64,000 nt of DNA, from assembly GCA_965287045.1 (NCBI GenBank), contig OZ336885.1, positions 63,798,001 to 63,862,000 on the forward strand, in the 5' to 3' direction. Under the pieces are notes generated by a model. The model worked only from the letters and a program-made list of their open reading frames with translations, was not told the origin of the DNA and made no database searches. The position numbers were made by a program, and so were the translations under genes. This DNA comes from Carcharhinus amblyrhynchos. Its lineage: Eukaryota. Positions 1,545 through 62,037 of this stretch are shown here, in pieces. Numbering within the stretch: position 1 is the first letter of the stretch; each line of letters opens with the position of its first letter.

Positions 1545-1580
1545 CTTTTTCCTCGATAATGTCCTTTAATGCATGACATT
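1545..1580 (-). CDS. 36-nt phase 1-1 micro-exon ECHALKDIIEEK of coiled-coil gene
   Basis: Acceptor cgttttaacctccag, donor AAG|gtatga; open in phase 1; aligns with the other five 36-nt exons (L5, hydrophobic 2 and 9). Confidence 0.75.
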
Positions 1581-2744
1581 CTGGAGGTTAAAACGATTAA
1601 TCATCATTAGATATTGTTCGACTAAATGTGTTGATGTTTAGTACAATGCTTATCACTGCAAAGATCATTTTTGCCGTCTAACCGTTTGCCGCAGAACATT
1701 TTGGAACGAAAATGTGAAAACCGCTGGATGAAATTAAAATAAAATAAAACGTAGGTGTATTTTGTTCTGGGCACGACTGGTAGGAGAAGCCCATTTTAAA
1801 TATCAACTATTCTCATTTTCAGTGAACACATAACAGCTGATGTGTGGACTGTATATTGTTTATTATACGTTTAAGTATATCTTGCTTACGATTCTGGATA
1901 TCAGTTAATGCCATAAAATGGCTGTTTTAGTGGGCAACAAAATTGGAAGTGCACCAAATGAAATTGCAGCAAAAATATCCTTTTATTTTCTATTCATTAA
2001 TTGACGCATTTCAAATGTATACATTGCTGCCTTTACCGGATTAAATGACAAATCAGTCTTGTCATTGCCAACAATCGTATAAGTTAGTTGTGAAGTAGAC
2101 TGTGAGCAATATTAGATCACGAGATTCAGTTATGATATGATTAAGGATTTACTGTTCGCAATTGACAAATTATTTCGAACGTTGTGACGGCGAGGGAACA
2201 TTAGCGAACTACGTTTGTAAGGGATGGTTGGGCATCAAAGAATATTACTTGCCTGGTTGAAAAATTTCCACAGGCATATGCACACATTTGCCTGGAAATT
2301 AGTTCAGATTTATGTATTGGAACATGGAAAATAATTACACAAAGTTATGCCTCCTCTGAACGACGATATCATTTGTGTCTAAAATTACATCAGTGTTGTG
2401 TCGTTTTCGCATGATGACATGAGTTATTTGAATGAAAGCAGGAACAATACTTCAATCGGCACAAAGGCAAGTTAAAATGCAATTAAAATTAGCACAACAT
2501 CAAAAGCTGCAGCCTAGCATGTGCATAAAGAACGCTGGCTTGTGCGGCAGTCCCTCGAGTCTGTCTGACATGTTCCGTATCAGCGCACCTCAAGGATAGC
2601 TGTTAAATGAAAAAAAAATGCTTGCTTTTGTACTGTGCATTTGACTGTGTGTGTGTTTGTTTGCCTGACATTATGTGCAGGTGCTTCGCTATCTCTCCAT
2701 TCTTGTTTCAGTGCGTGTGTTTGTGCCCGAACATGCGCGCGTGC

Positions 2745-2749
2745 GTGGT

Positions 2750-2794
<45 letters not shown>

Positions 2795-2840
2795 GGAGGT
2801 GGAGGGGGCAGAGGGAGAGATAGAGAAAGAAAGAGAGAGT
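2745..2840. repeat. (TG)n(AG)n compound microsatellite
   Basis: Directly visible. Confidence 0.95.
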
Positions 2841-2890
2841 TTATATCTGGCTGTGAGTGATCGTATGCATTACTTTGGTATCGGTTGATA

Positions 2891-5238
2891 TAGAACATAG
2901 AACATAGAACATAGAACATTACAGCGCAGAACAGGCCCTTCGGCCCACGATGTTGCGCCGACCAGTTACAAAAACAATGACCCACTAGCCTATACCAATC
3001 CCTTTTCATCCATAAACCTAACCACAGATCTCTTAAACGCCCCCAAACTAGGCGCATTTACAACTGCAGCAGGCAGGGCATTCCAATCCCTCACCACCCG
3101 CTGGGTAAAGAACCTACCCCTGACATCCGTCCTGTAGCTACCCCCCCTTAATTTAAAGCCATGCCCCCTCGTGCTAGCTTTCTCCATCCGAGGAAAAAGG
3201 CTATCACTATCCACCCTATCTAAACCACTAATCATCTTATATGTTTCAATAAGATCCCCTCTTAGCCGCCTTCTTTCCAACGAAAACAACCCCAAATCCC
3301 TCAGTCTCTCCTCATAGGACCTCCCCACCATACCAGGCAACATCCTAGTAAACCTCCTCTGCACCCTCTCCAAAGCCTCCACATCCTTCTTGTAATGTGG
3401 GGACCAGAACTGCACACAGTACTCCAAGTGCGGCCGCACCAGAGTAGTGTACAGTTGCAACATGACGCTGCGACTCCAAAATTCAATCCCCCTACCAATA
3501 AACGCCAAGACACCGTACGCCTTCTTAACAACCTTATCTACTTGATTCCCAACTTTCAGGGATCTATGTACACATACACCCAGTTCCCTCTGTTCATCCA
3601 CACTATTCAAAGTCCTCCCGTTAGCCCTATACTCGACACATCTGTTGCTCCTACCAAAGTGAATTACCTCACACTTCTCCGCATTAAATTCCATCCGCCA
3701 CCTCTCGGCCCAGCTCTGCAACCTATCTAAGCCTCCCTGCAGACTATGCAACCCTTCCTCACAATCTACCACACCTCCGACTTTGGTGTTATCAGCAAAT
3801 TTACTAATCCACCCAACTATACCCTCATCCAGATCATTAATAAAGATTACAAACAACAGTGACCCCAAAACAGATCCCTGAGGCACACCACTCGTAACCG
3901 AACTCCATGATGAATATTTACCATCAACCACCACCCTCTGTCTCCTATCTGATAGCCAATTCCTGATCCAACTTCTTAGGTTACCCACATCCCATACATC
4001 TGCATTTTCTGCAGAAGCCTACCGTGGTGAACCTTATCGAACGCCTTACTAAAATCCATATATACCACGTCAACTGCCTTGCCCCCATCCACCTCTTTGG
4101 TCACCTTCTCAAAAAACTCAATAAGGTTAGTAAGGCACCACCTACCCGCTACAAAACCATGCTGACTATTTCTAATCAATTCATTACACTCCAAATAACT
4201 ATAAATCCTATCCCTAATAATTTTTTTCTAAAACCTTGCCCACAACAGAAGTAAGAATCACCGGTCTATAATTCCCGGCAAAGTCTCTGTTCCCCTTCTT
4301 AAACAATGGGACAACATTCGCTATCCTCCAATCCTCCGGGACTACACCAGAGACCAATGACGACCTGAAGATCAGAGCCAGAGGCTCTGCAATCACCTCT
4401 CTAGCCTCCCAGAGAATCCTAGGGTAGATCCCATCCGGACCAGATTGGACTAGGAGATTTATCTATTTTCAGCCCCTCAAGAATATCCCTCACATCCCCC
4501 TTATCAACCGTAATACTGTCTATTTTACACCCCTGCAACCCAGTGTCCTCCTCAGCTATATTCATGTCCCCCTGCGTGAACACCGAAGAGAAATATTGGT
4601 TCAATGCTTCTCCAATCTCCTCCGGTTCCACACACAACTTCCCTCTGCTGTCTGTAACTGACCCTAATCTTGCCCTGACCAACGTTCTGTTCCTGACATA
4701 CCTATAGAATGCCTTAGGATTCTCCGTAATCCTATCAGCCAAGATCTTCTCATGTCCTCTTTTAGCCCTCCTTAACTCCCTCTTCAACTCCCTCCTAGCC
4801 AATCTAAAGCTTTCTAGTGCACTACCTGAGCCCTCAAATCTCATCCGAACATAAGCCTCCTTTTTCTTTTTAACCATCGACTCAACTCTTTTAGTGCACC
4901 ACGGTTCCCTAGATCTACCAATTCCTCCATGCCTGACAGGGACATACCTATCAAAGACTCGCAGTAGCTGCTCCTTGAAAAAAATCCACATTTCGGACGT
5001 TCCCAGTCCCTGTAATCTCCTAGTCCAATCTATGCTTCCTAATTCACTCCTAATAGCCTCATAATTACCCTTACCCCAGCTAAAACTACTGACCCGAGGT
5101 TCATGCCTGTCCCTTCCCATCACTAAGGTGAACGTAACCGAATTATGGTCACTATCACCAAAATGCACACCAACTTCCAAGTCTAGCACCTGGTCTGGCT
5201 CATTTCCCAGCAGCAAATCCAATATAGCCTCACCTCTA
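2891..5238 (-). mobile_element. CR1-clade (HER1-like) LINE, 5'-truncated, frameshifted ORF2 (APE C-terminus + RT)
   Basis: ORFs 4419-5222 (HFGDSDHN), 4214-4396 (GNYRPVILTS), 3976-4194 (YMDFSKAFDKV), 2990-3988 (SGVPQGSVLG, KFADNTK, RPHLEYCVQFWSP); 3' tail gggccgaagggcctg followed by (TGTTCTA)n. Confidence 0.95.
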
Positions 5239-5325
5239 TATTGTTATGTTACAAATATGCAATGTTGTCTTCAGCACGTTGCTAACATTGAAGTATTGCA
5301 ATAGATAATTGATATGTATTGAGAA

Positions 5326-5327
<2 letters not shown>

Positions 5328-5387
<60 letters not shown>

Positions 5388-5400
5388 ACACACACACGCA
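5328..5400. repeat. (CA)n microsatellite
   Basis: Directly visible. Confidence 0.95.
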
Positions 5401-6814
5401 CATTGGACGGGCAACTCAAGGCAACTGTTCTCGGCCGATATGCTCTACCCGATTTCAATCCCACAAAGCAATGCTGCAGATGTCCAATCGCCATACTTCG
5501 GCAAACATATAGTTTGCTTATCATTGTTGCACTTGAGTCGCTTTTACATGGTGCAAAGAATTCCAAAGGATATGTTGTCATCCATAGATGAACACATGCA
5601 CACCTACGCCAGAGAAGTGCTTGGAGAAAACGTCAGACTTTTCATGTATCTCAACATCCAAATCTAACTTTCTAAGTTTCTGTTAGTTATTTTCGACTGT
5701 GTTGCAAGAGCTTGTTATTACACGCATCAACGTTGTCCGTGTAAAGCATTCCCTAAGGTGGGCCAATCAACACTCTGAACAATCTTTGGAAATGTAATTT
5801 TTGGTTCACTTCCCTGCTGCACTGTATGAATATTATATAATTACAATATCCTCGAATATTTCGTATGCCACTAGAGGATTCAATGAATATCGCTTCACTG
5901 CCACAGCGTTAAGAATAATTTTAATTAGTTGCAACAATTCCCATGTATCACAGTTTTATCAAGATGAGGAAGGAACATTTTATTTGTTTTTTTTTGCTTC
6001 GTACGTGTATTCGTACAGTGCTGCTTTTGAACATTTAGAAAATCAATGCCCCATATGCAGTACATTAATTTCATCACTATTCAAGAGTATAACAAAGAAT
6101 AAATACAGATCACTTACTGCAGAGTAATCAAAGTTTAATGACGGTTCAACATTTCCATGCCGAACAATGCTGCACTTTCGCAACAAAATAATTCATGTCT
6201 TCAAACATGAAGACCACTGAAACAACCTGAACTGTTCAGTTTAAACTGAATACGACATTTTTGCTCCTGGAAAAAAAGTACATTCATTTCTCTCCTAGCC
6301 ACCGCCTCCACCCCGCCCCTCCCCCAACTTCTCATATCCTCTCCACCCACCGCTCGTCCCCCCCGCCGAAAACATGCTGGACTTTCGTATTTTACGAGCA
6401 TTGTAAAACACCTCAGCTTGAAATCTCCGTTTATTTACTGTGGTTCACTTCCAATCATTTCTTCCCAAATGAATTGCACCCCACCGAAAATGGACATTCC
6501 TGTTCAGTTTTCGTCTCTCTGACAGCATTCTCTATTCTCGTAGTAAAACGTCATGCTATCCTGTCCTGTCCACAAGTTGGAGCGAATTAAACTCATCCGT
6601 CTGCCTTAGCATCAGTAACTGTCAAATGTCTTGATACCTGCTGCAGGCTCTCACAGCTGTGACATTAAATTGATTTGCGATTTTGCCGCACCCTCAGTCG
6701 ACGTCTCTAAAATCTAACTTTTCATTTTTGTGGAGCTCCCATGCAAATTCGAAACGCCAATAGTTTCTCCCTCCACAGGTGGAGACAGACGTGCAGAATT
6801 TCTGCAAGATTATG

Positions 6815-7150
6815 AGAGTCAAGGACCGAGTGCGTAATAAACTATTGTTCCCATAGTTGAAAAGTCAGTTGGGGCGGGGGTGGGGGTCGGTCGATGAGGG
6901 ACTGGAAATAAACGGGAGACGTGAGTAAACACTTTTTTTAACTCAGAAGATGGTTATGGACTGAAATGCATTGCCTGGGAGGATGGTAGAGACGGGACAC
7001 TCCAATTCTTTTAAAATTTTTGGATGACCAATTGTCACATCAGAACATTAGGGGATCTCTACCAGCATGCGGAATTAGTACGGCGTTCTGTTGTTCTGAA
7101 ATTATCTAAGAAGACTTGGTTTTCCGAATGGTCTGTTCTGTGCTGTTAGA
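6815..7150 (+). mobile_element. Degenerate CR1 3' fragment
   Basis: 'actcagaagatggttatggactgaaatgcattgcctgggaggatggtagag' resembles TQRVVxxWNALP coding; tail 'ccgaatggtctgttctgtgctgtta'. Confidence 0.65.
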
Positions 7151-8771
7151 TACAATGATTTTATGCTGCGTTTTAGGATTTCGGATGATAGGAAATAGTC
7201 TGTTTAAATACTTTTGATGTCTTAGTTTCATATCTGCCCTGGGATTTTTTTTTTTAACAATAATGAAGAGGAGATGAATCATGCAACTGCAGATGGTAGT
7301 CTTACTGAGATGAGTAGGTACTAAATTTCCTGAACTGCTTGTGGAAGTTGCAAAAGAAAACCTCATTTTAGCCTCGAATGGGCCTTTTTTTCTGTAGATC
7401 GTGCCAGAAATTCGGCTTTTATAATGAGGACAGTTTTACATTAATTAACATGGATCTGTCGTTAGCAATGAAGCAAAATAATCTGAGTTGTGCGATATGA
7501 TTAGAAGTTCAAATAAGTGGACAAAATTAATTTATTATTAGGAACTGATTAGGCTTTAAATTTGAACCGAATGTGCAATTTGTTTAATGAAATCAGATTT
7601 GAGGACATTTTGTTTCACACACTGATTCATACTGAGTGCACTTAGTTCTCAGAAGCATTAAGACTACAGGGATGGTGAATGTTTTCTGTGAAAAAAAATC
7701 TGATCACAATTTCAGGAGAATGTTCTTGCAAAAGCGTGGAAGTGAGCGTTAAAATTGGTAAAACTGGATTTCCCCACGAAGGGCTAGCATGGTATCGATG
7801 GTCCGAATGGGTTCGACAATGTCATTGGTGACGCTTTCATTCTTCGCAAGTCAACTCCCAATAATTTGAACGTTCATTATTTTTATTTTCAAATATGATA
7901 AATATGCTCCAAAAATAAGTTGCCGTCCTTGCATAAATAGCAAAAATTCTAGCGCTTAAAGTCGATGTATTTTGCACACTTATCAATTGAATTATAGGCT
8001 ACACGATTAAAGTGATGGATCCGATTAGGAAATACTAGTACTCTCTTCATGGAACAATGTGGGTAACCAGTGTTCCATTTTTACCACTCTGCCACTTTGA
8101 AACCCACGATGACGTCAACTAGCAATCCATAATGATACGTGTTCCGTTTAATCCACAGTTTTGTGGTTATCACGGACCATTTTTAAAATGCCATTGTGAC
8201 GGAAGTTTTTTTTTATATAGCCTACTTACAGGATGGAGAAGCCGAATATTCATTGGATGTAGCGGGTTTGTGAAACTAGTGAAGCAACTAACCAAATTCA
8301 ATTAAAACATTACTGCAAGTCAAAAAAAAACTGGTGATTTAAATTTATGGAATAAACAAGGCCACATATCCGGCACTTCTCATGCTTGTCGGGCAGCGAG
8401 CCAACACATTGAATTCAACTGTCCAGCGTTATCTCTATACTAGTGAAGATCACTGCAATTGAATAACTAATTTATGCCTATTTCCAATTCGTTGATGGCT
8501 TATGACTTCACTGCTTTGTTAACCAGACACTTCTAAGTCTTAATATATCTGTGGGTGATTAACAACGTTAAACAACGCCATTTGACCCAGCCTCACACTA
8601 CAATTTTCCTTCGACACTATTGGGAATCATTTCAAATCTAGCTTACCTAAAACAAATAGATAGGCAGACTGCATCTATTATGATTTGGCCCACCTGAAAT
8701 TTGTGTAAAACAACAAATTTGCATGCAGAAGAATCACTATTTGAGAGAAAAGATAGGCAGTCAAAACCCAC

Positions 8772-8812
8772 CGACAAATTTCCGGAAGTGTCAACATCGT
8801 GGAAAATCTCTT
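8772..8812 (-). CDS. Candidate exon EEIFHDVDTSGNLS (41 nt; 45 nt with alternative donor), uncertain
   Basis: Acceptor tatctaacag, donor TCG|gtgggt; starts in phase 1 after the 9599 exon but does not match the repeat motif. Confidence 0.25.
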
Positions 8813-9598
8813 CTGTTAGATAATTGTATCGTTTATATTTTGGAATGACACGAGCAGCAAACATTCCTCGTCGTTGAACTAATAGTTCATATGTTTTCAG
8901 CATAAACATCAATGCAGTTGTGCAACTTGCTTGACATATGAATGAATGGATGCAATGTAATTTCATATCTACCTCATCAAGCTATTCTGATACCTCCAGA
9001 GATCTGTGGACGCCCACTCGAGAATGCAATGGTTAAAGTCAACTAAAGACTGAAAAGGGAGCCGTAATCTCCTAATCTCTCAAAGGTCCATTTGAGTACA
9101 ATTTGTATTGCTTCTAAATTAGGTTGGAACATAGTGCAAAACAACTTGACGCAGACAAGCACTAAATTAATGTATATTTCTTGCACTCATGGAAGTTCCC
9201 TGAAACAGGCCGCAGATTTAAGTGTACTCTGCATAATAGACTATGCATTGGGATTGAGTAGTAACAAACATCTCCGAAATTTTGTACGATTGGAACACGT
9301 GACATTGCATAGCATGTCAATACCTGTGCAGTGTGAAAAGGAGGCGTGTTTACCTTGAAATTTTAGACATAAATAATCTACTGAATGACACTCTTCAATT
9401 TTCTACTTTCCTATTACTGATGGCGTATCTACAGGAAATGGGTGGCTGCGAATTGAAAACACCGCTCTCGAAGTAAAGCAAATTGAGTGGCAAAAAAAAA
9501 CATTTCAAGTGCAAACTGTTTGGGAGGAACAAAAAGGCAGCACATACATAAAAGGGAGATGCTTAATTTACGCAAATGGACTACATGCACATTCTTAC

Positions 9599-9625
9599 CC
9601 GTGTCCTGCTTTCTTAATTTTTGAT
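9599..9625 (-). CDS. 27-nt phase 1-1 micro-exon DQKLRKQDT
   Basis: Acceptor attgttttcttag, donor CGG|gtaaga; resembles DEETREKDS and EQNIAKKDE (D at position 8). Confidence 0.75.
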
Positions 9626-10377
9626 CTAAGAAAACAATTTTAAAATGAGTAAATGCATTCATTTTAATGCAACTCAATCAGTTTTTGCAAATTAATGTGG
9701 TGAGTGGATGGCATGCAATTTTTATTATTTTTTGATCCTCACTGGGAACTGTCCAATTGCTTATGAAATTAAAACATGCACAAAGAAGGAATAAAGAAAG
9801 AACAAAGGAATGATAGAAACAAAAACAAGAATATCATAATTTGGTTAAAAGAAATGAATATATAAGCCAAAGTAGACGACCATTACTGCTAGTGTCTTCT
9901 GCTATCAAATCATTCAAAAAAAAACTGGATTTTCTCTTAAATTCTAAACATCAAATGTTGTTCCAGAAAATGAGACGAAAATGGAGGAGGTGACGAACAG
10001 AAAGAGCAAGGTGAGGGTGTATTAGTCTCAATAAGGAGTACTATGAAATGGACACAGAACCGCTGAGTTGTCTCCAGGAATACAGACGAAATGGGTGGCG
10101 CAATTGTTGCTTTCACTTCAGGAAATGTGTCAGGCGCCAGACGACCAGACTCATCTGAAGGACGAATAATCGTGTCACTGTGGAAAGTTCATAGTTTGCT
10201 AATCTTGATGCAACCGATTCGGAATGCAACGACTGCATGTCAAAATGGGACATGCTCTACACTTTATCCCAGGAAGTTTAAATCTGAGCCGCACAATAAA
10301 TTTCAATTCGTAAGCCTGATAGTTGAGCAATCTATGCAAAGGCTTTGAGCACGCAAGAACATCTTAGGAAGACGAAC

Positions 10378-10404
10378 CTTTAACCAAGTCGATGATCTCT
10401 AAAT
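10378..10404 (-). CDS. 27-nt phase 1-1 micro-exon DLEIIDLVK
   Basis: Acceptor catattcttag, donor AAG|gttcgt (moderate); starts with DLE like the 60307 exon and occupies the same position in the module. Confidence 0.5.
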
Positions 10405-11449
10405 CTAAGAATATGGCCTGGCAATTAACACCATTTAGGGCCAAAGGAATAAGCAGAACAATCACATGTAATCACCCAGTTTCCAAATATTGGTAACTCT
10501 TCGACCACACCAACATTGCGAGAGATTTTTGCATCAGCATATCATGTCAATAACAGCCACTCGGAGAGTTATTCTTTTCCAGCCGTGAGGAACGGAAAAA
10601 AAGTCACAGAAAATGAACAGAGACGCAATCACAGATTGCACCAGCTTGCAATTTTCAGTTACAGTTTTACTTCTAAACTTCACAAAGCAACATTAATACA
10701 AGCTGCCTGTAATTTAAATTATGTAAACTGTTTGACAAATTGTGAGCTCTCCGATATCTTGGACACTCCCCCTTTATGTTCGTTATGAGATCATTTCAGG
10801 GCGATGGAATGGCTTATTTTGTGATTGTCCTTCCAGCTGAATTAGTCGCTTAAAAGCGTTCCATCCAGTTATACTGCAATTTTCAGGTTTTGTAGAGTCT
10901 TACAAAGCCTCGACATTGCAATGAAGGTGAACAGCTTATCCAACATAGGAAGCAACTGCTAGAAGATGGTCTGTGAAACCTAACATTGTGGAACGTTCGC
11001 CAATAATGGTAAAGAGATACAGTCCTTAATTCAGCAGTATTTTAAAGTGACGTTTGGCTGAATATTTGAACAAACCCTGGAGAAAACAACACCATCACTG
11101 TCAGTTGTGAAAGCTCGTGATATCTGAAAATGCATGTGCCGTGGCAGTAATAATGATTGTCAAAAGCATAGCCAGCAAGCAATTTTGCAGGCACCGACGA
11201 CATTTCATGTTTTATTCATAGTTATTAGGATGAATAATTATCGGGAACTCCTGGGTACACACTGCTAACAGTTAAGCGTAGAATGACACCTTGAAATCCA
11301 GACGTGTGAGGCTTAGTGAAGAGTTTTGATGAAATCCAGTTCAGAAATTTCACCTCCGGCATGAAGGTCTTCAACTCCATTGCTCACTCAATTGCGTCTC
11401 TGGACTGCAAGATCGAAAATAAAGGTGGGTGGGTGGTTCATCATTGAAG

Positions 11450-17458: not shown

Positions 17459-17485
17459 CTGCTTGGAGGCTCTCTTTGTCGCCTG
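17459..17485 (-). CDS. 27-nt phase 1-1 micro-exon AGDKESLQA (NAGNAG acceptor; 24-nt alternative)
   Basis: Acceptor cttcaccccgatttgcag|CAG, strong donor CAG|gtgagc. Confidence 0.6.
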
Positions 17486-18268: not shown

Positions 18269-18304
18269 CTAGATCATAAATGTTCTCTTTCAGCTTGTCG
18301 ACAG
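18269..18304 (-). CDS. 36-nt phase 1-1 micro-exon AVDKLKENIYDL
   Basis: Acceptor tcttccttgtttcatatttgcag, donor TAG|gtgagt; only phase 1 is open; matches the 12-aa repeat. Confidence 0.8.
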
Positions 18305-24598: not shown

Positions 24599-25482
24599 GG
24601 ATTTTTTTTTGTCTTCTTTACAACACCTGCAAAAGTTTGAAATTGAGCCGTACTTTGAGGAAATGAGCAATATGACCCACATTTTTTTTGTTGTTGTTTA
24701 CATTCTATAAAGCAGCACTTGGTCGTGTCAGATGTTTTTCCCATCAGGGCATTTTGCTTTCTGGGAAATGTGTTCGGAGCAAACTCAACGTATTATGAAT
24801 AGCGAGAAACATTTCACTCGTCTTCCTTTGCATTTGCAGATTCAAGCGTACGATTTATTTTTGCCATCTTACGAAATTCTCGTGAGCTCAATAATGATAA
24901 AAATAAATGTTACAATTGGAATACAGTAAACAAAGCATTTTCGCCTTTACCTTTCTGTTTGTAGGAGAGCTTTAGTTCTAAAAGTGATATAATGATAGAG
25001 TGAAATAAGGGCATACTGTTGATAACAGTTTCCAAAACTTCATGAAGAGCTCTATCCGGCATAAATCCCCTACCAAATCGTTACTACGCTGTCCAATATT
25101 GATTATTTTATATGACTAGACATAGAACAAAATGCTTCATGCTATGTTACGTCACTGTGCCGTCACCTTGCTTGTGTTGTGGTACAAAGTCCAGGGAGGA
25201 ACGTTTTTTTCCAGTGGTATGATCCATTTTGTTACGTAAATTTATGAATTGGAAAAAAACTATAGTAATGTTGACAAGAGCTGCATGTAGTGAGCCAACG
25301 TGTTTGAGTTCCAACTATTTTAGCTTCGACGGACTGGGGAACTTAATTGTGTGTTTTAATGATCAATGATTCGTAGATAAGGCATTCGATTAGGCGCCTG
25401 TGCAAATCACGTCGCTCCGTCATCGACAATAAAACAGGCAGTCACGTTATGTTCCACAAAGGGAACGGATCCAAGGGCAACC

Positions 25483-26547: not shown

Positions 26548-26583
26548 CACAATCTTCAAGGTCAATTTTCAGTTTTGCTAAAT
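26548..26583 (-). CDS. 36-nt phase 1-1 micro-exon DLAKLKIDLEDC
   Basis: Acceptor ctctttttgtcttcaacag, donor GTG|gtaagt; matches the 12-aa repeat. Confidence 0.82.
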
Positions 26584-29481: not shown

Positions 29482-29517
29482 CGCATTCTTTAATAGTGTC
29501 CTTCAATTTATTTACAT
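29482..29517 (-). CDS. 36-nt phase 1-1 micro-exon DVNKLKDTIKEC
   Basis: Acceptor ctcctacttccccttcag, donor GCG|gtgaga; matches the 12-aa repeat. Confidence 0.82.
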
Positions 29518-32761: not shown

Positions 32762-33821
32762 TTACCATTGTAAATGTCACTAGTGTGATATCATGTTTCA
32801 GGAAATGTTTGATGCTTGGAAATAAGAAGTGTTATCAACAATTGTTTCGGATGAAACAACGGTTGCAATACCTGATTATATTTAATCAAAAAATATTAAT
32901 TGTAATGCTCAGATGAGATGAACTGGTGCCGAGATGTGGTGGCACAAATCTTACGTTTTGGGGCAATTAGGGTTTGGCGCAAAGCCAGGACAACAGCTAG
33001 CTTCAGGACATCATACAATAATAAATTACCGGTATATGAGAAAGCGGAAGGCGATTGGCCCATGTACATGTTGGCATGTGTATCTCAAAGCTGATTGATT
33101 TAAAGTTATAAAACATTTTACCATTGTAAATGTCATTAGTGTGATATCATGTTTCAGGAAATGTTTGATGCTTGGAAATAAGAAGTATTATCAACAATTG
33201 TTTCGGATGAAACAACGGTTGCAATACCTGATTATATTTAATCAAAAAATATTAATTGTTCTGCTCAGATGAGATGAACTGGTGCCGAGATGTGGTGGCA
33301 CAAATCTTACGTTTTTGGGCAATTAGGGTTTGGCGCAAAGCCAGGACAACAGCTAGCTTCAGGACATCATACAATAATAAATTACCGGTATATGAGAAAG
33401 CGGAAGGCGATTGGCCCATGTACATGTTGGCATGTGTATCTCAAAGCTGATTGATTTAAAGTTATAAAACATTTTACCATTGTAAATGTCATTAGTGTGA
33501 TATCATGTTTCAGGAAATGTTTGATGCTTGGAAATAAGAAGTATTATCAACAATTGTTTCGGATGAAACAACGGTTGCAATACCTGATTATATTTAATCA
33601 AAAAATATTAATTGTTCTGCTCAGATGAGATGAACTGGTGCCGAGATGTGGTGGCACAAATCTTACGTTTTTGGGCAATTAGGGTTTGGCGCAAAGCCAG
33701 GACAACAGCTAGCTTCAGGACATCATACAATAATAAATTACCGGTATATGAGAAAGCGGAAGGCGATTGGCCCATGTACATGTTGGCATATGTATCTGAA
33801 AGCTGATTGATTTAAAGTTAT
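32762..33821. repeat. Tandem repeat, 356-bp unit, about 3 near-identical copies
   Basis: 'ttaccattgtaaatgtca' recurs at 32762, 33118 and 33474; the ORFs at 33256 and 33612 are duplicates. Confidence 0.97.
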
Positions 33822-37187: not shown

Positions 37188-37214
37188 CTTCATCTTTCTT
37201 AGCGATATTTTGTT
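37188..37214 (-). CDS. 27-nt phase 1-1 micro-exon EQNIAKKDE
   Basis: Acceptor cttttttttcatgtttcccgcag, donor AAG|gtattt; joins in heptad register to DVNKLKDTIKEC. Confidence 0.78.
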
Positions 37215-37629: not shown

Positions 37630-37880
37630 CAAAAAAAGAAGAAAATGTTGGGAATTTTCACCAGCTTTGGCAATATCTGTGAATCGAAAATAGAGCCAAC
37701 ATTTCGATTATTGGTGATCATTACTCGGAGCTCCCAAGAGCACACTCAGGTTGTGATGAAAAATCAATCAGTCTCGACATTTTGACACTATTCTCTTTCC
37801 ACAGTTATCTTCCGGCCTGCTAATATTTTCGAGCATTTTATGTTTTGCATCGTATTCTGCCATCCACATATTTTGAATTA
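37630..37880. repeat. Degenerate palindromic (Penelope-derived) repeat
   Basis: Left arm 'aaaatgttgggaattttcaccagc...atctgtgaatcgaaaatagag' is imperfectly complementary to right arm 'ctattctctttccacagtta...cctgctaatattttcgagcatttt'. Confidence 0.55.
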
Positions 37881-39287: not shown

Positions 39288-39323
39288 CACAATCATAAAG
39301 CTTTTTCTGCAGCTCATCTATTT
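39288..39323 (-). CDS. 36-nt phase 1-1 micro-exon EIDELQKKLYDC
   Basis: Acceptor cttttttcgcttctacttacag, donor GTG|gtgagc; matches the 12-aa repeat. Confidence 0.82.
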
Positions 39324-47240: not shown

Positions 47241-48329
47241 GGAATTGGAATACACCACGCAACAACGGCCTGAATTAGGACCTAAGAAGATTCAAGAAAA
47301 GGGAGGAATAAATGTTCAAATTAAAATCACGAGGACGATTTAAACATACGGTTGGAAAAAATAAGATTCGCAATTTGGGCATTCATTGTGGCTCACAGAA
47401 GAAACTTTCAGTGAGTAATGATATGAAGACCTGAAGCAGCACATTCCATTGTGCAAAATTATTTTCATCTGTTTATAATGTTTTCCACGTGCCTTGACTT
47501 TACCCATGCCTGACAAAAATATGCATGTCATACGTAACAGTCAAACAGGCATCTATGTATGTACATAAGACCTGGACAACGCTGGACACACGACGAAATG
47601 ACAATCCTTCATTGTCCATGAACTGAAATTTATGTAAACTATTTAAACACCGTATGTTATATGGTATTGCTAATATTCGTATTCGGTGAAATAAAACTAT
47701 TTCAATGTTTAAGTTCATACAGTTGTTTGTGACAAGGCAATTTATTAGTGTTTTGCAATGCTATTGGCTGAAAGACTTCACAGTTGTTTGAAGTAAGCTT
47801 ATGTATCATACGGTGGACAAGCAAGGGGATTGGATTTCACATTTAACACTTTCTACATCATAATGCAAAACTTGATTTAATATTAAAATTCAGAGATGTT
47901 ACCCAAATGATGAACACTGTGAAATTTCAGATTTATTTTCATAATGATTTTCATTGCACTCGCTATTTTCCTGACAGTCTATCTTCTGTTTTTGTAGATC
48001 TGTCACAAAAAGGAAACTAAACATATCGCGAACTCTTCAGAGCGAAGGCGAAATCTTCATTCAGCTCCCACAGCTTTTCTCGCATTTCGGTAAATCGTGG
48101 CTAATGACATTACTTGTCAGTGAAGTCATGCATAATGCATAACCTTGGAGGTATCGGTCGATATATGAAGTATGGAGCCGTTCTATCAAGTGTTTCATTT
48201 ATTTCACATTCTTAATTGTTTACAGTTTAAATAGATTATTTAAAGCTGGGAGTTATGTGCACTGGGCCGTCGCTCGCCGAGGCCATTAAATGCCTGGCAG
48301 AGCGAAGTGTCCAGAAGATACTGAACGCC

Positions 48330-51370: not shown

Positions 51371-51378
<8 letters not shown>

Positions 51379-51456: not shown

Positions 51457-51457
<1 letters not shown>

Positions 51458-52839: not shown

Positions 52840-54890
52840 GGGATACAACTAAACCAACATTATCACGAGGCCAAGCAACCAATTCATTATCAATCGTAAG
52901 GGCTGGTGGGCATGCAAGGAACCACACCAGGCATCAGCAGAATTGATGCCTCAAACAGCGTGATGGTACAAGGAAGGAATATTTGAATGCCATGCAATAA
53001 CGTGGCAAGTTACAGGTAAAGGCGAATTCAGTCCAAAACAATGGATCAAAGGATCAAAACTCTTCAATTCGATCACATGAAACCGCGTAATCTGATTGAA
53101 AACTTAACAGCTCGTTCGAAGATATGTCTCCACAATGTCTCCTTTCTCAAAGAAGGATATGCACAGCACATCAATGCATAAGATATAACATTTACAACAA
53201 TCTTCGACAAAAAGCGATGAATGGATCATCCATTTTTGATCTCATCTGTCGGTCTCCAACATCATCAAAGTCAGCCTCCAAACATTCCCAAATAAACCAC
53301 CTGATCTCCTAAAACGGTTGAAGGCATTCGATCCCCGAAAGACCACGGATACTGGTGTGTTTGTGTTTTTTTGTTTGTTTTTATTTCTGTTTTTATTTTT
53401 CTCTCTTGCAATACAATTGAAAATGTTTCTCTGGAATGTGTCAATAATCTAGCAACTGATACCGGTACAAATGGAAAATTAACACGCATGTTTTACCTGT
53501 TATTTATAGTTTACAATAAACTAAATAGACATAAAGGACTGACTATTGAGCCTAAATGTGATGTGTCAACAGTGATATGATAGAGGGGATCAGCAGAGAT
53601 GGAGAGCGTCGCACACTCAGATATAACCTGCAAATAGAGGCTCAGTTTGTATTGCACTTAGGTAACTCAACTCCTGATGCCATTACAGCAGTGGGTTAAA
53701 TCGGACAAAGTGACTGTAGATCACAAACAAGTTATGAATTTCAACTTTGACATTAAGGCAACATTTTTTTTTCCGAGTCTGGAATCTAACAGTATTGTAG
53801 CAGCTTGGATCATTGGGAACCAGGCTGAAAAACCTCCGTTGGTTGTAATCATTACTGATTCAAGGGAAAGTTGCTCTAATGATTGTAATTCAATCATTTC
53901 GTCTCTTGTACATCAATGCAGTAAGTAATGGTAGTGCCTTACGCCTAGCCAAACCCAGTTGGTTCACGAAGTGCATTATTTAAAACTTAATCCAGACTGG
54001 AATATCTGTTGGTTACTGCAAAATGGTCAAAGCATTTGGTGACCTCACGAACACCGAAGCTCTGCATTTTTGTACGCCCAAAAAATAGACGCAGCAAGGC
54101 TAACAATTGACACATAATATTCCTGAAAGTGAAAGACTAGGCAATGGCAGTGGACAAAAAGACACAATCGAACAAAATATACTCTTGATATGCAATGGCA
54201 TGCTAATCGCTTAGATCAATCACTATCGATGGCTGTTACCCTTGACCAAAAAATGAACTGGACACACCATAGAAATCTTCTGGGTATCAGAGCAGGTCAA
54301 CAGCTTGGAATCCTGTGTCGAACTACAGCTTCTGACTGCAAACTTGTTTACTGTCTTCAAGGCACAACTGAGGTATGTAATTGAGTACGCTGCACTCGGC
54401 TGGATGAGTGCAACTCCATCAACACTGAAGATGGTTCATGCCATTCCAGGGTAAAACAAAAATTTTGATTTCAATCAATTCTTCAAACTTGAAAGCCTCC
54501 AATAATAACGAAAATTAACAGCTCAGTTTTTGCTCTGCAAGCTGCAGTACAGGAAGTTCGCTACTTCCTTAGGCAACACTTTCAAGACCCATGTCAGCTA
54601 GGAACCAGAAGGATAAGAACAACTGATATAGGGGAAGCCGGCATTTTTTTTAGTTTTCCTTCCAATCACTCATTAACAATCACTTTTAATCACGTGATAA
54701 CATATCACTTTTCAGTTATTTTTGTTTGTGGAAGGCATGCAATTCCGTCCCGAATAGAACTGTGGGTGCACCTATAATTCAGTGACGGCAAATGTTCAAA
54801 AAATCAGATAACCACCACTTCCTGCAAGGAAAATAGGAATGAGGAATGCATGCTGTCGTGGACAGAAATACGCATATTCTGTAATAGAAT
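52840..54890 (+). mobile_element. Highly decayed non-LTR retrotransposon, same family as 15715-17435
   Basis: VTLDQKMNWTHHRNLLGIRAGQQLGILCR; shared 3' tail. Confidence 0.7.
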
Positions 54891-54967
54891 CAAAAATATC
54901 CCTTCCACTCAGATCACTAAAAGCCGGTCAAGACTTCTCCTCGACAGCGGACAAGTGGTGAACTTAC

Positions 54968-55088
54968 TTCCTGCCATCCACAGTATTTGAAATAATCTTC
55001 TGTCTATTATGATTTGCAACTACCCGTGGAGCCTCGACATTGTGCAATGTAACAGCTCCTTTATGATATGCTTTATACATGTACAAAA
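54968..55088 (-). CDS. Candidate 121-nt exon VLYMYKAYHKGAVTLHNVEAPRVVANHNRQKIISNTVDGR, phase 1-2
   Basis: Acceptor atgtttttctcag, donor GAA|gtaagt; only the phase-1 frame is open; no recognisable domain. Confidence 0.35.
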
Positions 55089-56849
55089 CTGAGAAAAACA
55101 TTGTAAATGATATTTTTTCTTTCAGTTGAAGGGTTGTAAATACTTGTAAATTTAACCTCGAATTAATGTTCCACACTCAGCTGAACTTAAATTGTGCCAC
55201 AAATTTTGGTCAGGCTTGTGCTTTCCTAAAATACAGATACAAACAAAAAGAATAAGCAATGCAGGGAAACATTAGCTGTGAGCGAATAATTAGAGGTAAA
55301 AATGTGGGTCAATCCTGTTTCAAACGGTTTAATCTTTTTGAAATTTCTCCATCCTGCCGTTGAAACAGCCACCAAAACAAAAATTCTATCATCGAACTGC
55401 ATGTCATTTAGAAAAAAAAAGTGTGCCACTGATCAGGCAGTCAAACATATGTTGACTTTTTTTTAATGACAACAATTATATTCAAGTAGACTGATGTACA
55501 CAGTAGATAAAACGTGAGGAAGAAATATTGAATCAGTTAAGTTGACATGTCTTTGTATGAACAGGTTTCCAAAAGTAGTAGTTTGAATTGATACCCTTTT
55601 GTTTCTGTCGTAATTTTTCTCCTTTCAAATAAGACGAAAAAAATAATTGTTGTTAGATCAAAACAAATACAATAATTTAATCTCACCACAGCAGAAGGCA
55701 TGCTATTGATTGAATGAAACTATGCTGTGTTGTCCATCTTCATTGTTTTTAATTCCATGTGCAAAGATCAATCGACTCAAATTATGTCCAGTTGTACATT
55801 GGAAATTCCATTACCGCTGCATATATCATGTTACCAGATTGAAAATAGTGGACATTAATAGTTGCCGATGTAAAGACCGATATGGTGCATTATAGTTGTT
55901 CAAAACACTTTTAATTTTACAGTTCTGAAGGCACAGCACTAATATTGCAATACGATTTTTAAGTTTTTTTTAGAAAGGACTGCGATGTCAATGTAAGCAA
56001 TGCTTCGTGTCCCTGATTCGACGCCCATCCGATCATTTATCTGTTAATGAAAAATATTTGTTGTGTTTTTAATGGCAAGACCTCCACAAATCGAGATTTA
56101 TAATGCCATGCAATTAGTTTTCCCCTCTCCAATTGAAAACATGTCTTCATCCTTATTGATATGCTAATGAAGTGGTTTAACCACCACAAGGCAGAATGCT
56201 CGGCACATTTCTTTGTCAGTAATACACAGGTTGCAAATACGAGGGACAAAAAGTTCCATGAGAAGGTATAGGCTCTCCCCAGTATTTGATGAACCCAGGA
56301 ACATGAGATGAAGAAAAAAAAGGCATGTCCAATTGTTCATCTCAGATTGTGATGCTTCACGGAGAGTCCAGACACGTGCTAGAAGGGTCTGAAAAAAAAA
56401 CCTGGCCTCGTGGATAGGTGCTGATCCTGACTTTTTGCGAATGATGTAGGAGGGCACCAAGTCAGCTCAGTGTATCCACTTTTCCCGCTTTCCACCCACC
56501 CAAATAAATATCTGTCTTCGTATTCTTGCTACCCAAGTGGACAATCTCATGCGTATTGCTTCTGCCAGAAATAAGCCCACACTGTCCATCTGTTGAAATC
56601 ACACTGACGCATCTCTTCACCCTTCTCACACCACACCCTCCAACCAAATTTGTGTCACATGCGAATGGGGAGCTAATTTAATTAGTTTCATCTTCTGAGC
56701 CATTAACATGTAAACTGCGCATCGTACGTCTGAACACATATCCTTTCCATACACTATAATTGTCTGTCAGCCAATCGAGAAATAAAAACAGTCATTCGAA
56801 TTCTTCGTTTTTTCACCTGTTTTTTTTTTCTGCTTTCATTATGACGTAA

Positions 56850-57190
56850 CTAGTCAGGGTCACTTCGAAAGGAATGTTCCAGGTAGTGGAGAGTTCAGTA
56901 CGAGGAGTATGAGGCTTGAGGGTGTGGAGTAAACCGTTGAGGACTGAGGCGAGAAACAACGTCATCACCCATCGCGTGGTGAACTTGTGGATTTCATTGC
57001 CACAGAAAGTAGTTGAGGCCAAAATGTGTGGTTTCGAGAAGAAAAAAAATAGATATAACTCTTCGTGCTCAAGAGATGGTGTTGTATACTGGAAGTTGTA
57101 TGAGGATATTGCTACGGGTGATCAGCAATTATGAAAGTGAATGACAGAGCAGACTTTAACAGCGGAATTGCAAACTGTTGTTTCGAAACT
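56850..57190 (+). mobile_element. Degenerate CR1 3' fragment
   Basis: ORF 56916 (RNNVITHRVVNLWISLPQKVVEA). Confidence 0.8.
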
Positions 57191-58099
57191 ATGTTTCGAA
57201 GTTCCTGTACACTCATCCTACAAATCCAACTCTGCCACCCATTTCATCACACTGTTCAACAAAGCAAGTAAATGATAATTCATGACACACAGTACAAACA
57301 CACTAAACCACCGAACCACACACAGAACATTCATTTCGGCAGAACCTAAGTACGGATTCAAGCTCACACAAGCTGTTGAGACATCAGTATGCGAGAACGT
57401 GCAATGAACATGCATATGCCCAATATGGAAAAAGAAAGAGAGCGCAATGCAGTGTGTGAACACAGTTTTTTTTTCAGTACACCTGCCGATGCAACTATTG
57501 AGATTGTTCATCTAAGTATTGAGCCTTAACAGGATGTCCATCGAATCTCCGCGTTTAGAAGATTTGAGATTATCCTGTTTTTTTTTCCCTGAAAACGTAA
57601 TGCAGCCGAAGAAAAATAACCTGAAAATGAAGATAACCAACAGAAACAGAGATTATGCGCATTCAGCCTTCATTTGTTTTTCATGCCATCAACACGTCCT
57701 GATGAAGCTATTATTATTCCGATGGAATTCTTCATATGAAGTTGAACATTATAATTGCAGCTCAAAATTTGATCAAAACAGGGATAATAGTTAATTGAAT
57801 AATTCATCAGCATGTACCTTGCTAAGAAACATAACTATGACTTTTCGGAATTTTACTCGAAACAAATATTGGGATTGATTATTGTTTTAAAATCAATCGT
57901 CTTCTTCCAGAAATAGCTTTATGGCAAATGAAGTCAACATAGAAATCAAGAGTTAATGTGATTCCACAAGGGCGTAGAAAAAGAAAAATGATTAATTACA
58001 ATTCCACCGTTCTCTTACTAAATGATTATTGAAGCTCTCGAAATTGGAGTAAAGTTTAGAACAGCTGTTCATGTTGCAGAGGTTTTATTTTATTCTCAC

Positions 58100-58135
58100 C
58101 TGTAATTTTTAAATCTTTATTCAAAGCAACTATTT
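58100..58135 (-). CDS. 36-nt phase 1-1 micro-exon EIVALNKDLKIT
   Basis: Acceptor (T)n-cccttccctcatag, donor CAG|gtgaga; matches the 12-aa repeat. Confidence 0.8.
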
Positions 58136-58264
58136 CTATGAGGGAAGGGAAAAAAAAAAATGTTGACTTCTGAACGGGAATTGCCTTTGTGTCTCAATAG
58201 AAACACTATTGCGAATCTGCAGATTAGTCAACAGAGACTGATTGCCTGATTTAATGGGGTTCAC

Positions 58265-58327
58265 CCAGCTCCCCAATATCAAAGGAGGGATATTCATCAT
58301 TTATATTCCCTTGTGGTGCCTCTGTTT
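58265..58327 (-). CDS. Candidate 63-nt phase 1-1 exon ETEAPQGNINDEYPSFDIGEL
   Basis: Weak acceptor cactatcagtcag, donor TGG|gtgaac; symmetric and open but not coiled-coil-like. Confidence 0.3.
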
Positions 58328-59415
58328 CTGACTGATAGTGTCGCGTCAAACGTGCAGTGAAATCCATCCCCAAGCACAATATAGTTATTACAATGTAATT
58401 CTTCTTCTGTGAGGTTCCCAACCGAATCACCAATAGACCTTAGCTAGTTGAGGGTTAATACTAGCTGCATTGGAAACTGAGACTATCGTAGAAACAGGTT
58501 CTTTCTGGATGTACGGTGGACTTCTGGCACGAGGGAAAGCGTTGTGTACTTGTATTAGCAGATTTCGAGACACCGACAATTTCGGAGTGGAGTGCAATGC
58601 AAGACAGTGGTGTCAGCCATCAGGCTCCAACAACGCTGAGGGTAATCTCAATGTGACCTCGTTTTATGAAATTGACATACTAACGCAGGTCCATTTTAGT
58701 CAGAGCTGAATTACGGAAGGAACTTCTCGAGTTCAATGGCACATGCACACCCGCAGATAAATGGATACCAACGGTGGCGACGTGTCAAAACTAAGTGATT
58801 ATATGCGTTTTCAGCCCTCAGTAGTGTCGAAGGTGACTTTCTAAACTAATGTCCCTCATCCTCATGAGAATTTCGGTGGATGATGACTAAATCAAAAGGT
58901 TGCAAAATCTCCTCACTGACGCCTCTCATCTTGCCGTGGAATCCCAGCACAGAAACAGCATGAAATTTAGCCAGTTCTCCGACGTGCACTTTAGTAACCT
59001 TCTGCCTGGAAACATTTGAATTGGAAATCCAATATCATCAATGTGGGGTCAATGTAGATGGTGACACGTAAGCTTTCACTTCCGCTCTGCGACACAAACA
59101 TAGATGAACTCTTCGATTGGTTCCATGAACCAATGTAAGAAGTGATTCATTTTAGGTGAACGTCACGTCACCCATTGTCAAAATACATCGCTAAGGTAAT
59201 CTGACAGAGAAATATTCCTCTCTGATGTGTATGGGAGCCTATGTTGTCCCTTGATGTGACAACTTTCCGAAAGTAATACATTGACCATCATTCAAAATAT
59301 GCCTGTGGATGTTATCTAAGGTTAGGAAACAACTTCTGTCTTCATATAAATCTCTCTTTTTCGACTCTCATATATGCACACACATACACACAAGCAAGCA
59401 AACTTTCTCTCTCTC

Positions 59416-59561
59416 NNNNNNNNNNNNNNNNNNNNNNNNNNNNNNNNNNNNNNNNNNNNNNNNNNNNNNNNNNNNNNNNNNNNNNNNNNNNNNNNNNNNN
59501 NNNNNNNNNNNNNNNNNNNNNNNNNNNNNNNNNNNNNNNNNNNNNNNNNNNNNNNNNNNNN
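59416..59561. other. Assembly gap (146 N) abutting a (CT)n run
   Basis: Directly visible. Confidence 0.99.
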
Positions 59562-59648
59562 TGGAGAACTGCTGAAAATGAAGTCATGCATCCAAAGGTG
59601 TGAAATCTCGCAATCAAAATTGGGATTTGACTCCATACATTGCATTAC

Positions 59649-59675
59649 CCGAATCTTTCTCGCGGGTCTCTTCAT
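59649..59675 (-). CDS. 27-nt phase 1-1 micro-exon DEETREKDS
   Basis: Acceptor ttatttgaaattccag, donor CGG|gtaatg; D at position 8 as in two other 27-nt exons. Confidence 0.72.
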
Positions 59676-60306
59676 CTGGAATTTCAAATAATATTGCAGT
59701 GATAAAGGGGTTATAGGCGGGGAGAATTAATGAACTTAGTTTTTTTTTAAACTTAGTTTACATTGCTAAATATGAACTGATAATATGTGGTAATTTTCGT
59801 CAGATAAATATCCACATGAAAACGCAAGCAACGTTGGGCCGCATCAAATTACTTTCCAGGAAAATGGAAATGATCAATTTTGTTCCGACTAAGTAAATGA
59901 TGAAAGGCAGAATAACCTTTCTGGGTTTCTGCAGTGAATCAACCGAGCAGGATCTGCGACAGCCTAAATATTTGTGGCACAAATTAAATAGCATTGATTT
60001 GTACGAACCATTCAATATCCTACTTCTTTCGTGGAAATATTAACGAATCTTTAACAGGCAAATATCCTGACAATCCGATGTGATTTACGCTATTTCAGAC
60101 GGCCGGCATGATGCATTTCACTTTGTTGTATTGCGTAATAAGTCATACCTTAGCCTTTAATATGGTTCATTACTGATGATGTGGGATTTATTCTGATCCA
60201 AATACTCACAGGGTAACAATGACAGAATTACATATTTAAACGTCAAGTTACAAGGGTTTCATTCCAGTGACGGGAGGCTCGAAGTGGACAAAATATATTT
60301 CCTCAC

Positions 60307-60333
60307 CATCGATTTTCGCTCTTGCTTCGAGAT
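60307..60333 (-). CDS. 27-nt phase 1-1 micro-exon DLEARAKID
   Basis: Acceptor tcttctcttatttgtgtaag, donor ATG|gtgagg. Confidence 0.6.
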
Positions 60334-60979
60334 CTTACACAAATAAGAGAAGACTAAAGATGTAACGTGAATTTATAGATAAAGTTTTCATTTTTGTCCA
60401 TGATGACTGTTCGTCATCATGTTAAATAAACATCAACCACTACGTCTGAATAATCTCATAAACTGAAGATTTATGAAAGATTTCTGAACGAATTTGCATT
60501 CAAAAATATGCGTTTAAATATAAGTGATTAATAAAGCAGCAGATGAAATATTTATGGACAGCAGTGGACAAAGCCTCTCGTTATTCACTGAACGACACAA
60601 TGGAAGAATAATCAACACTCAACACGACATCGATTTTTTATTCATAAACAAGTTCAGGTGAAATTCGGGTAAGCTTCAGCTATTGGCTTCCGCTAAACAC
60701 TTCTCAAAACAATTCGACACTTCTGATGACTCAAACGCACCTCATCCAGAATGACAGCTTTGTGAGTTTGGAGAATTCAACATTTCGTCCTGAATGACTG
60801 AAAACGTCATGCCGAAACATATGAAACATATACCTCCAAATAAATGAGTGGATAATTCTAACAAGTTTAACGATAATGACTATGGGTGATTAAATTGTCC
60901 ACAGTAGATTTTTGTTTTATTATGGTTCGAATAACTAAACATGTTAGTTTGAAAACATCTACAGATGAGGCCGAGATCG

Positions 60980-61700
60980 AATTGAATCTCCAGTCATACA
61001 GTGTGGAAGCGGCAATTTGGTCCATCAAGTAATGTTGGCACGCGAGAAACAAATAGCATTCCAATTAATCCCATATAACAACATTCGGCCCAGTGTCATA
61101 ACGTCTCAAGAGTTCAACAAGTTACCTTTGCACAATATGTGGTAACTCGCCCCTTCACCACTTTAACGCCGTACATTCGGGGCCATCAGCATCGTCTTTA
61201 TAAAATAAAACATTGGCTTCCATCCCCCTAAACATACTGCCACTCAGCTTGAACCTGTTGTCGCTTGTGTCTGGTCTTCAACTGCAGGGTATAACAGTTC
61301 CTTATCCAATGTGTCCATGTGTCTCGTTATTTGTACACTACAATCAGAATGCACCTTCGTCTTAAATGTTCTGTCGCAGGCCTATGCGACCTCTTCAAAG
61401 ATTAAATGTTCTATTGTAGCACTGTACTTGCTAATCTACATTAAATTCGCATTTTCATTAAATGTGATCAGAAATGTACACAGCACGCTAGTGTGGTCCT
61501 TAACACGCTACTATACAACTCCAACATGACATTGATGATTTTGTAATCTATGCCTCGATTGATAAATCCAATCTCCCATAAGCCCTTTACACCATCTGAC
61601 CAATATGTCCTTCAACCATAAGACATCTTGGACAAACGCATTGAAGTCCTCTTTTTTCCACATTTTTTCTAATGCAATTCTGTCATTGTAAATGAGTCTA
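60980..61700 (-). mobile_element. Very old CR1 remnant
   Basis: Tail 'catacagtgtggaagcggcaatttggtccatc'; 'gatcagaaatgtacacagcac' (CVHF-S). Confidence 0.65.
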
Positions 61701-62022
61701 GCATTGCCATTCGACTACTTTATGAAACCGCACTTATGTCCCCCAAATAGAATCATTCAAGTGGAAGGAGATGAAGTTATTTCATTGTCTGCGATCATTA
61801 GGGACATGCCAATAGATATACAAAAGGGGAAAAAAAATTAAACAACATTTTGAGGTAAGTAAGACATGGAATACAGATTGCCTGGCCAGCATTTAAAACA
61901 ACTAGCTTTAAAAGCAATAGTTAATAAGTGGAGCAAATCGTCTGATGGTAAGGCTTTGTATTTTTGCTCAATAAATAGTTGGAAAGGCACACCATATGCT
62001 CACTCATAGAAGTCAATCTTAC

Positions 62023-62037
62023 CTTTTTTCTGTTTCT
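62023..62037 (-). CDS. Candidate 15-nt phase 1-1 micro-exon EKQKK
   Basis: Acceptor cctcacgacag after a T-rich tract, strong donor AAG|gtaaga. Confidence 0.45.

Follow-up and report, generated by a model that had tools for sequence, protein, structure and literature searches.

Minus-strand micro-exons of the window

The stretch of DNA analysed here (the window; 64,000 nucleotides, nt) comes from the 2.92-Gb genome of the shark Carcharhinus amblyrhynchos (GenBank assembly GCA_965287045.1, contig OZ336885.1, here C16; positions 63,798,001-63,862,000), and its minus strand carries a series of micro-exons, mostly of 27 or 36 nt. A first-pass annotation had proposed a hidden gene of about 60 kb at this site, built from six exons of each of these sizes. 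All 12 listed peptides were found on the minus strand as placed, each with AG before it, GT after it and an open frame in phase 1-1, and their total of 378 nt (6 × 36 + 6 × 27) is correct. Eleven of them stand as exons, one (10378) is doubtful, and five others had been overlooked (62023, 55595, 47964, 37662 and 24951); our best set for the window comprises 16 exons and 471 nt. The proposed length was far too short, as the window is merely an interior slice of the gene body, covering about 4% of its span.

We ran the opposite-strand and shuffling controls that had been put forward as a test of the list, using a motif rule (AG, 36 nt, GT, open frame, final G, Leu at position 5, hydrophobic residues at positions 2 and 9) derived from the same six exons. 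The rule matched six times on the minus strand and never on the plus strand, gave no match at lengths of 30, 33, 39, 42, 45 or 48 nt, and averaged 0.36 matches (maximum 3) across 100 dinucleotide shuffles. Because this rule was read off the six exons under test, a held-out control is stronger: we scored candidates with a leave-one-out profile over 764 kb of continuous sequence, made up of the window, 150 kb on its 3′ side and 550 kb on its 5′ side. Scores above 8 were reached by 47 of 1,437 36-nt candidates on the minus strand versus none of 1,387 on the plus strand, and scores above 10 by 48 of 1,626 27-nt candidates versus 1 of 1,541. A splice-site scan of the window returned six strong 36-nt candidates on the minus strand versus one on the plus strand. 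The 15-nt class counts six on the minus and one on the plus strand.

Read along the minus strand, the window opens with the 15-nt phase 1-1 exon EKQKK (62023..62037), which was absent from the earlier list and coincides with the end coordinate given there. Four profile-matched exons follow: DLEARAKID (60307..60333) and DEETREKDS (59649..59675), both of 27 nt; the 36-nt EIVALNKDLKIT (58100..58135), identical at 8 of 12 residues to chimaera protein P0181; and the newly found 27-nt GEKLRQKQK (55595..55621). At 55591-55609, a DNA contig set (X1) carries one amino-acid-changing letter in this last exon and two altered donor-flank letters, with GT kept; X1 behaves as DNA that differs from this genome by about 2.5%, is free of exon-exon joints and has no bearing on expression. 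Further along lie a 36-nt exon with a GC donor, DLQKQKIDCQEN (47964..47999), also new, the profile-matched 36-nt EIDELQKKLYDC (39288..39323), and a 15-nt candidate, DIAKA (37662..37676), which at a score of 6.6 is the weakest of its class. The profile then recovers the 27-nt EQNIAKKDE (37188..37214), the 36-nt DVNKLKDTIKEC (29482..29517) and DLAKLKIDLEDC (26548..26583), the previously unlisted 27-nt ELKLSYKQK (24951..24977) and the 36-nt AVDKLKENIYDL (18269..18304). The 27-nt AGDKESLQA (17459..17485; score 7.5) has strong splice sites, an atypical peptide and an alternative 24-nt acceptor, and the 27-nt segment DLEIIDLVK (10378..10404; score 0.9) is doubtful, both its acceptor and its donor being weak. 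Two profile-matched exons close the series, the 27-nt DQKLRKQDT (9599..9625) and the 36-nt ECHALKDIIEEK (1545..1580).

The longest open frames of the window, at 2993-5243 on the minus strand, are fragments of a long interspersed nuclear element (LINE) reverse transcriptase/endonuclease frame, which we take to be CR1-like; such fragments occur in many introns. A 356-bp unit repeated in three tandem copies at 99% identity (32762-33821) contains no array exon and is the product either of a very recent duplication or of the assembly.

Extent of the array and its terminal B30.2 exon

Across the continuous reading we inventoried 106 exons with 1,069 codons, running unbroken for 671 kb on one strand in phase 1-1 at a median spacing of 3.7 kb. 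By size these are 49 exons of 27 nt, 48 of 36 nt, six of 15 nt, two of 21 nt and one of 24 nt. The inventory consists of the profile matches minus one, plus twelve exons added by hand because they belong to other classes or scored lower; the one removed, at window coordinate -29015, lies inside a repeat that has plus-strand copies.

On the 3′ side, an intact terminal B30.2 exon lies at C16:63,735,737-63,736,257, about 62 kb before window base 1, on the side where a PRY/SPRY exon had been expected. It has a phase-1 acceptor, a stop codon and an AATAAA signal downstream. Pfam SPRY matches it with an E value of 4.8e-13 (49.7 bits versus a cut-off of 26.3), and Pfam PRY gives no score for it. Its predicted structure has a mean predicted local distance difference test (pLDDT) value of 68, the first 40 residues being poor, and this model resembles the B30.2 structures of BTN3A1 and TRIM7 with template modelling (TM) scores of about 0.6-0.68. 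The SPRY domain and the fold together place the exon in the B30.2/PRY-SPRY superfamily. No array exon was seen in the 88 kb past it, and from 63.74 to 66.44 Mb there is no other close B30.2 exon.

Upstream of the continuous reading the array was followed in samples, bringing the fraction of the span that was read to 55%. Samples of 10 kb at 64.455, 64.588 and 64.666 Mb held further exons and one at 64.51 Mb a weak candidate, while those at 64.76, 64.83 and 65.06 Mb held none. We traced the array to at least C16:65.35-65.43 Mb, about 1.69 Mb from the B30.2 exon. Exon size changes by zone: exons of 27, 36 and 15 nt reach at least as far as 64.67 Mb, those from 64.81 to 65.26 Mb measure 21 nt, and above 65.35 Mb sizes of 27-45 nt are mixed. 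A 21-nt pattern gave 15 matches genome-wide, 11 of them on the minus strand at C16:64.81-65.26 Mb, versus 4 for a reversed control; the pattern was built from four exons of that zone, which are themselves among the 11.

Introns at C16:64.253-64.259, 64.760-64.765 and 65.45 Mb contain provirus-like elements in which parts resemble gag, pol, dUTPase or env. For a duplicated cassette in the most upstream zone, a DNA search of the genome returned one other copy only.

The predicted coiled-coil module and its relatives

The peptides follow a regular hydrophobic pattern. In the 36-nt exons (n = 47), positions 2, 5, 9 and 12 are hydrophobic in 89, 79, 94 and 40% of cases, and in the 27-nt exons that follow a 36-nt exon (n = 35), positions 4 and 7 in 89 and 37%; every other position of the 36+27 module is hydrophobic in at most 17%. 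Leu at position 5, which had been called invariant, is so in the six exons first listed, but across the array it occurs in only 25 of 47. Because the hydrophobic spacing runs 3-4-3-4-3-4, the 21 residues of a 36+27 pair correspond, by sequence, to three heptads. Lys, Glu, Leu and Asp together account for 61% of the residues and Pro is nearly absent. Of 105 neighbouring exon pairs, 66 alternate between 36 and 27 nt, and runs of 36-27-27-27 (39 residues) would add a stutter to the coil.

Alignment of exons together with their flanking introns gave eight unique same-strand pairs, matching at 66-88%, after removal of two reciprocals, one self-hit, two repeat hits and two inverted copies. None of the 32 splice letters in these pairs is altered, versus 351 of 2,158 intron letters, a count biased by the fact that most pair partners were already in the inventory. 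The duplicated exons contain no stops and no gaps. Both inverted copies carry an altered splice letter.

At least six paralogues exist in this genome, and the B30.2 exon is open in all six that were read. The closer B30.2 paralogues lie on C16 (60.45, 61.08, 63.07, 63.15 and 66.44 Mb; 35-58%), with one more on C9. C16:60.4-66.5 Mb holds six related B30.2 exons, four on the minus and two on the plus strand. The gene of the window and that at 66.44 Mb are arranged head to head, and the interval from 65.43 to 66.04 Mb may contain an upstream region common to both; the 6.3 kb upstream of the latter's B30.2 exon contains only ambiguous 21-nt candidates. A partial 36-nt pattern matched 128 times genome-wide (100 listed), from which we picked seven matches beside paralogous B30.2 exons and nine look-alikes elsewhere: a whole 36-nt exon with a G|GT border was present in six of the seven versus none of the nine. 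One of these exons, on C9, shares 11 of 12 residues with catshark XP_038671249.1. Exons of this type form a second cluster at C9:103.9-106.4 Mb, within a large TRIM/butyrophilin B30.2 cluster, and the exon that matches the catshark protein is followed, 51 kb downstream, by a B30.2 exon at 103.955 Mb.

Protein searches found no close orthologue; the best matches reached 34-43% among longer proteins and 50-51% for two Logan fragments. In a midpoint-rooted tree of 47 hand-chosen B30.2 domains, 17 family members form one side of a branch supported at 100/100, and nine butyrophilins fall among TRIMs on the other. The clade extends to chimaera, catshark, skate, electric ray and basking shark, where its members bear names including TRIM39-like, A33-like and nuclear-pore anchor-like; in Pfam their models contain SPRY/PRY only, with no Ig, RING or B-box. 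The chimaera model XP_042192744.1 (1,697 residues) joins irregular N-terminal repeats, regular modules and a B30.2 domain in one chain. It matches the 12-residue profile 13 times, versus at most 4 in 100 shuffles, at spacings that include 42, 21 and 84. Its N-terminus has a 15-residue hydrophobic stretch and a basic cluster, and a search of the Atlas with its N-terminal 700 residues gave nothing above 0.78. RefSeq isoforms of relatives in three species differ by blocks of nine residues, which would fit skipping of 27-nt exons, the models presumably resting on RNA. Database entries of the family are mostly mislabelled fragments, and we found no description of it in the literature searched, which did not cover subscription journals.

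A candidate megabase gene, its rivals and known systems

A single gene of about 1.5-1.7 Mb probably contains these segments as its exons; its predicted product is a dimeric coiled-coil rod of great length with a C-terminal B30.2 (PRY-SPRY) domain and without a butyrophilin-type Ig ectodomain. The analysis thereby supports the earlier idea of a hidden chondrichthyan micro-exon gene for a coiled coil with the phase-1 exon logic of BG and butyrophilins. We consider the architecture well supported and regard single-gene status, splicing, N-terminus and function as inferences. If all exons are spliced into one mRNA, and given that a coiled coil rises 0.15 nm per residue, the 1,069 residues would form a rod of about 160 nm, longer if the unread 45% is equally dense (about 250 exons). 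Since the exons are frame-neutral, the rod could lengthen by tandem duplication of exon-plus-intron blocks and vary in length by exon skipping. The protein would most likely serve as a spacer or tether that keeps a B30.2 recognition head distant from an N-terminal anchor; a putative role in immune or trafficking recognition is suggested solely by analogy with B30.2 domains elsewhere.

Several observations weigh against this single-gene reading. The candidates at 65.35-65.43 Mb are less certain, are not coiled-coil-like and lie partly in the duplicated cassette, and in the 228 kb sampled upstream the 27/30/36-nt candidates number 17 on the minus versus 6 on the plus strand. Contiguous and sampled reading up to C16:65.458 Mb revealed no 5′ end, start codon or anchor exon, and the first 251 residues of the chimaera model have no match in this genome (14 candidates). 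As 45% of the span is unread, it may hide a gene boundary or an Ig or RING exon. In ten of the 105 neighbouring pairs both exons are of 36 nt, which interrupts the heptad count unless the pairs conceal missed exons, as may be the case. In the duplicate pairs, exon letters are altered at 38 of 225 positions, equal to the intron rate of 351 of 2,158, and without third-position excess, which gives no sign of purifying selection on residues; because exon letters changed at the intron rate, exon length and frame look conserved and residue identity does not. Among relatives, the catshark protein is marginal, with six profile matches versus a shuffle maximum of five, and most database models are short (175-945 residues).

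The same short models, the unread DNA and the change of exon size between zones would also fit two or more transcription units, either a 3′ gene of 27/36-nt exons with the B30.2 exon and a separate BG-like gene of 21-nt exons, or internal promoters that yield short rod-plus-B30.2 proteins. We consider this unlikely, though it fares best among the alternatives: every zone lies on the same strand in phase 1-1, no second B30.2 exon stands between zones, and the chimaera model unites irregular repeats, regular modules and B30.2 in a single chain.

An improbable alternative is a true butyrophilin, with signal peptide, IgV, IgC and transmembrane exons in the unread upstream DNA, followed by a giant heptad tail and B30.2. 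As in butyrophilins, phase-1 heptad micro-exons precede a terminal B30.2 exon, and a canonical butyrophilin of this genome on C53 has phase-1 exons, with IgV, IgC, a transmembrane exon, a 27-nt phase 1-1 exon and a terminal B30.2 within 8 kb; because of that 27-nt exon, a shared origin of the micro-exon with butyrophilins is plausible. The 21-nt zone resembles chicken BG, whose many 21-nt heptad exons are thus matched in one zone of the array only, and the chimaera model has its hydrophobic start. BG combines a single IgV and a transmembrane segment without B30.2, whereas here B30.2 is present and IgV was not found. Two IgV exon queries matched 66 and 84 of their 116 and 109 candidates, respectively, with no match at C16:60.4-66.5 Mb, where a very divergent IgV could be missed; the butyrophilin IgC (C2-set_3) gave 56 of 87, none on C16. 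Neither a signal peptide nor a transmembrane exon was seen in the DNA read up to 65.458 Mb, which did not reach the 5′ end. The Ig searches would have to have missed all six C16 genes, and the relatives' models contain no Ig family. The proposed assignment to a butyrophilin/BG-like receptor accordingly finds no support in the cluster or in the tree, where this B30.2 lies outside the butyrophilin/TRIM group: the gene is built like a BG/butyrophilin tail and membership is not supported, a receptor identity being conceivable through the 5′ end that was not found.

IgV-like exons at C16:67.61-67.63 Mb were rejected as an ectodomain: the plus-strand paralogue at 66.44 Mb stands between them and the window's gene, and the one that was read, at C16:67,613,980-67,614,340, resembles Siglec/MAG. 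A second lies 13 kb away. Elsewhere, a TRIM/butyrophilin expansion on C46, C53, C73, C41 and C9 comprises at least 150 SPRY exons, and C46, C53 and C9 carry some 20 IgV/IgC pairs of butyrophilin type; in the genome-wide SPRY search 150 of 376 candidates scored, and the B30.2 exon of the window's gene is not among the matches listed.

Relatives named TRIM39-like, TRIM58, TRIM69-like or A33-like, and paralogues inside the C9 TRIM/butyrophilin cluster, could point to a TRIM (RING, B-box) protein with an expanded coiled coil, which we regard as very improbable. The relatives' models show SPRY/PRY only, the tree splits this B30.2 from 20 TRIM-type and related sequences, and tblastn with TRIM and butyrophilin proteins found no RING/B-box or Ig in the DNA read through 65.418 Mb (four further pieces were covered by an exon and open reading frame scan only, and no genome-wide RING search was run). 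Least probable of all is a decayed or silent, untranslated relic array, which the intron-like substitution rate of the duplicated exons and the retroelement pieces filling the introns would suit, but not the B30.2 exon intact here and in all six paralogues read, the splice letters unaltered in same-strand duplicates and altered in both inverted copies, or the exon peptides common to catshark and chimaera models.

Returning to a single gene with rod and B30.2 head, a bolder proposal, which we offer only tentatively, is that it belongs to an undescribed chondrichthyan family, shared by shark, ray and chimaera and at least 400 million years old, whose megabase genes each contain hundreds of frame-neutral micro-exons. 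With about 250 exons in 1.7 Mb, this member might rival the most exon-rich vertebrate genes, the length of its rod, more than 300 nm, would be set by exon skipping, and the rod could present a B30.2 sensor of a new class. Six genes of this kind would fill about 6 Mb of one chromosome, nearly invisible to annotation. If confirmed, megabases of shark chromosomes that resemble an intergenic repeat desert would be taken up by an unrecognised gene family, of which several RefSeq 'TRIM' and 'A33-like' entries would be 3′ fragments. The family would take the micro-exon tail of BG and butyrophilins to an extreme, coupled to a separate B30.2 lineage, and would offer a natural system for the splicing of hundreds of micro-exons across multi-kilobase introns and for the evolution of coiled-coil length. 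It would also be relevant to a question raised for BG (PMC8813856), namely whether long heptad tails and B30.2 heads work jointly.

Among known systems, chicken BG genes, whose tails comprise 27-38 exons of 21 nt in the portion of the study available, are alike in forming a long coiled coil from many short split-codon exons, in length that varies by exon number and in the 21-nt zone (PMC5938342). They differ in that the shark gene has B30.2, has a main module of 36+27 nt and spreads at least 106 exons over more than 1 Mb, with IgV not found; BG has IgV and a transmembrane segment without B30.2, and butyrophilins few heptads, according to the accessible part of PMC8813856. Butyrophilins (BTN/BTNL, including this genome's own on C53, C46 and C9) share phase-1 exons, a 27-nt exon before the terminal B30.2 and the B30.2 fold. 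Their plan of IgV, IgC, transmembrane segment and few heptads, as excerpted from the same source (PMC8813856), is different, and the shark B30.2 is 30-37% identical to theirs, in a separate clade and with no Ig exon found. A 2026 survey of jawed-vertebrate butyrophilins includes sharks and, in the portion available, mentions no such family (PMC12841164).

Also comparable are the chondrichthyan models XP_042192744.1 ('nuclear-pore anchor-like'), XP_038671249.1 ('A33-like'), XP_038668997.1 and XP_038672308.1 ('TRIM39-like'), XP_055510696.1, XP_078422387.1 and XP_069775385.1, with the same B30.2 clade, repeat modules and 9-residue isoform blocks; they are automatic, misleadingly named and mostly much shorter, and none is a close orthologue. 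The enterophilins of guinea pig are soluble proteins with a long heptad run and a C-terminal B30.2, and are not known to carry RING or Ig; they are mammalian and far shorter, at about 45 heptads. Going by their description rather than by sequence comparison, they share the rod-plus-B30.2 plan. Enterophilin-1 is listed as a sorting nexin 1 partner in the part of PMC13749957 available. The same domain plan without RING or Ig recurs in Hucho A0A4W5JQX8 and three ESM Atlas clusters (55-137 members, 1,277-1,802 residues), although the Hucho B30.2 groups with bony-fish TRIM/butyrophilin and the 12-residue module matches twice, equal to the shuffle maximum of 2. Because the Atlas includes long rod-plus-B30.2 clusters from chordates, this domain plan is not unique to sharks.

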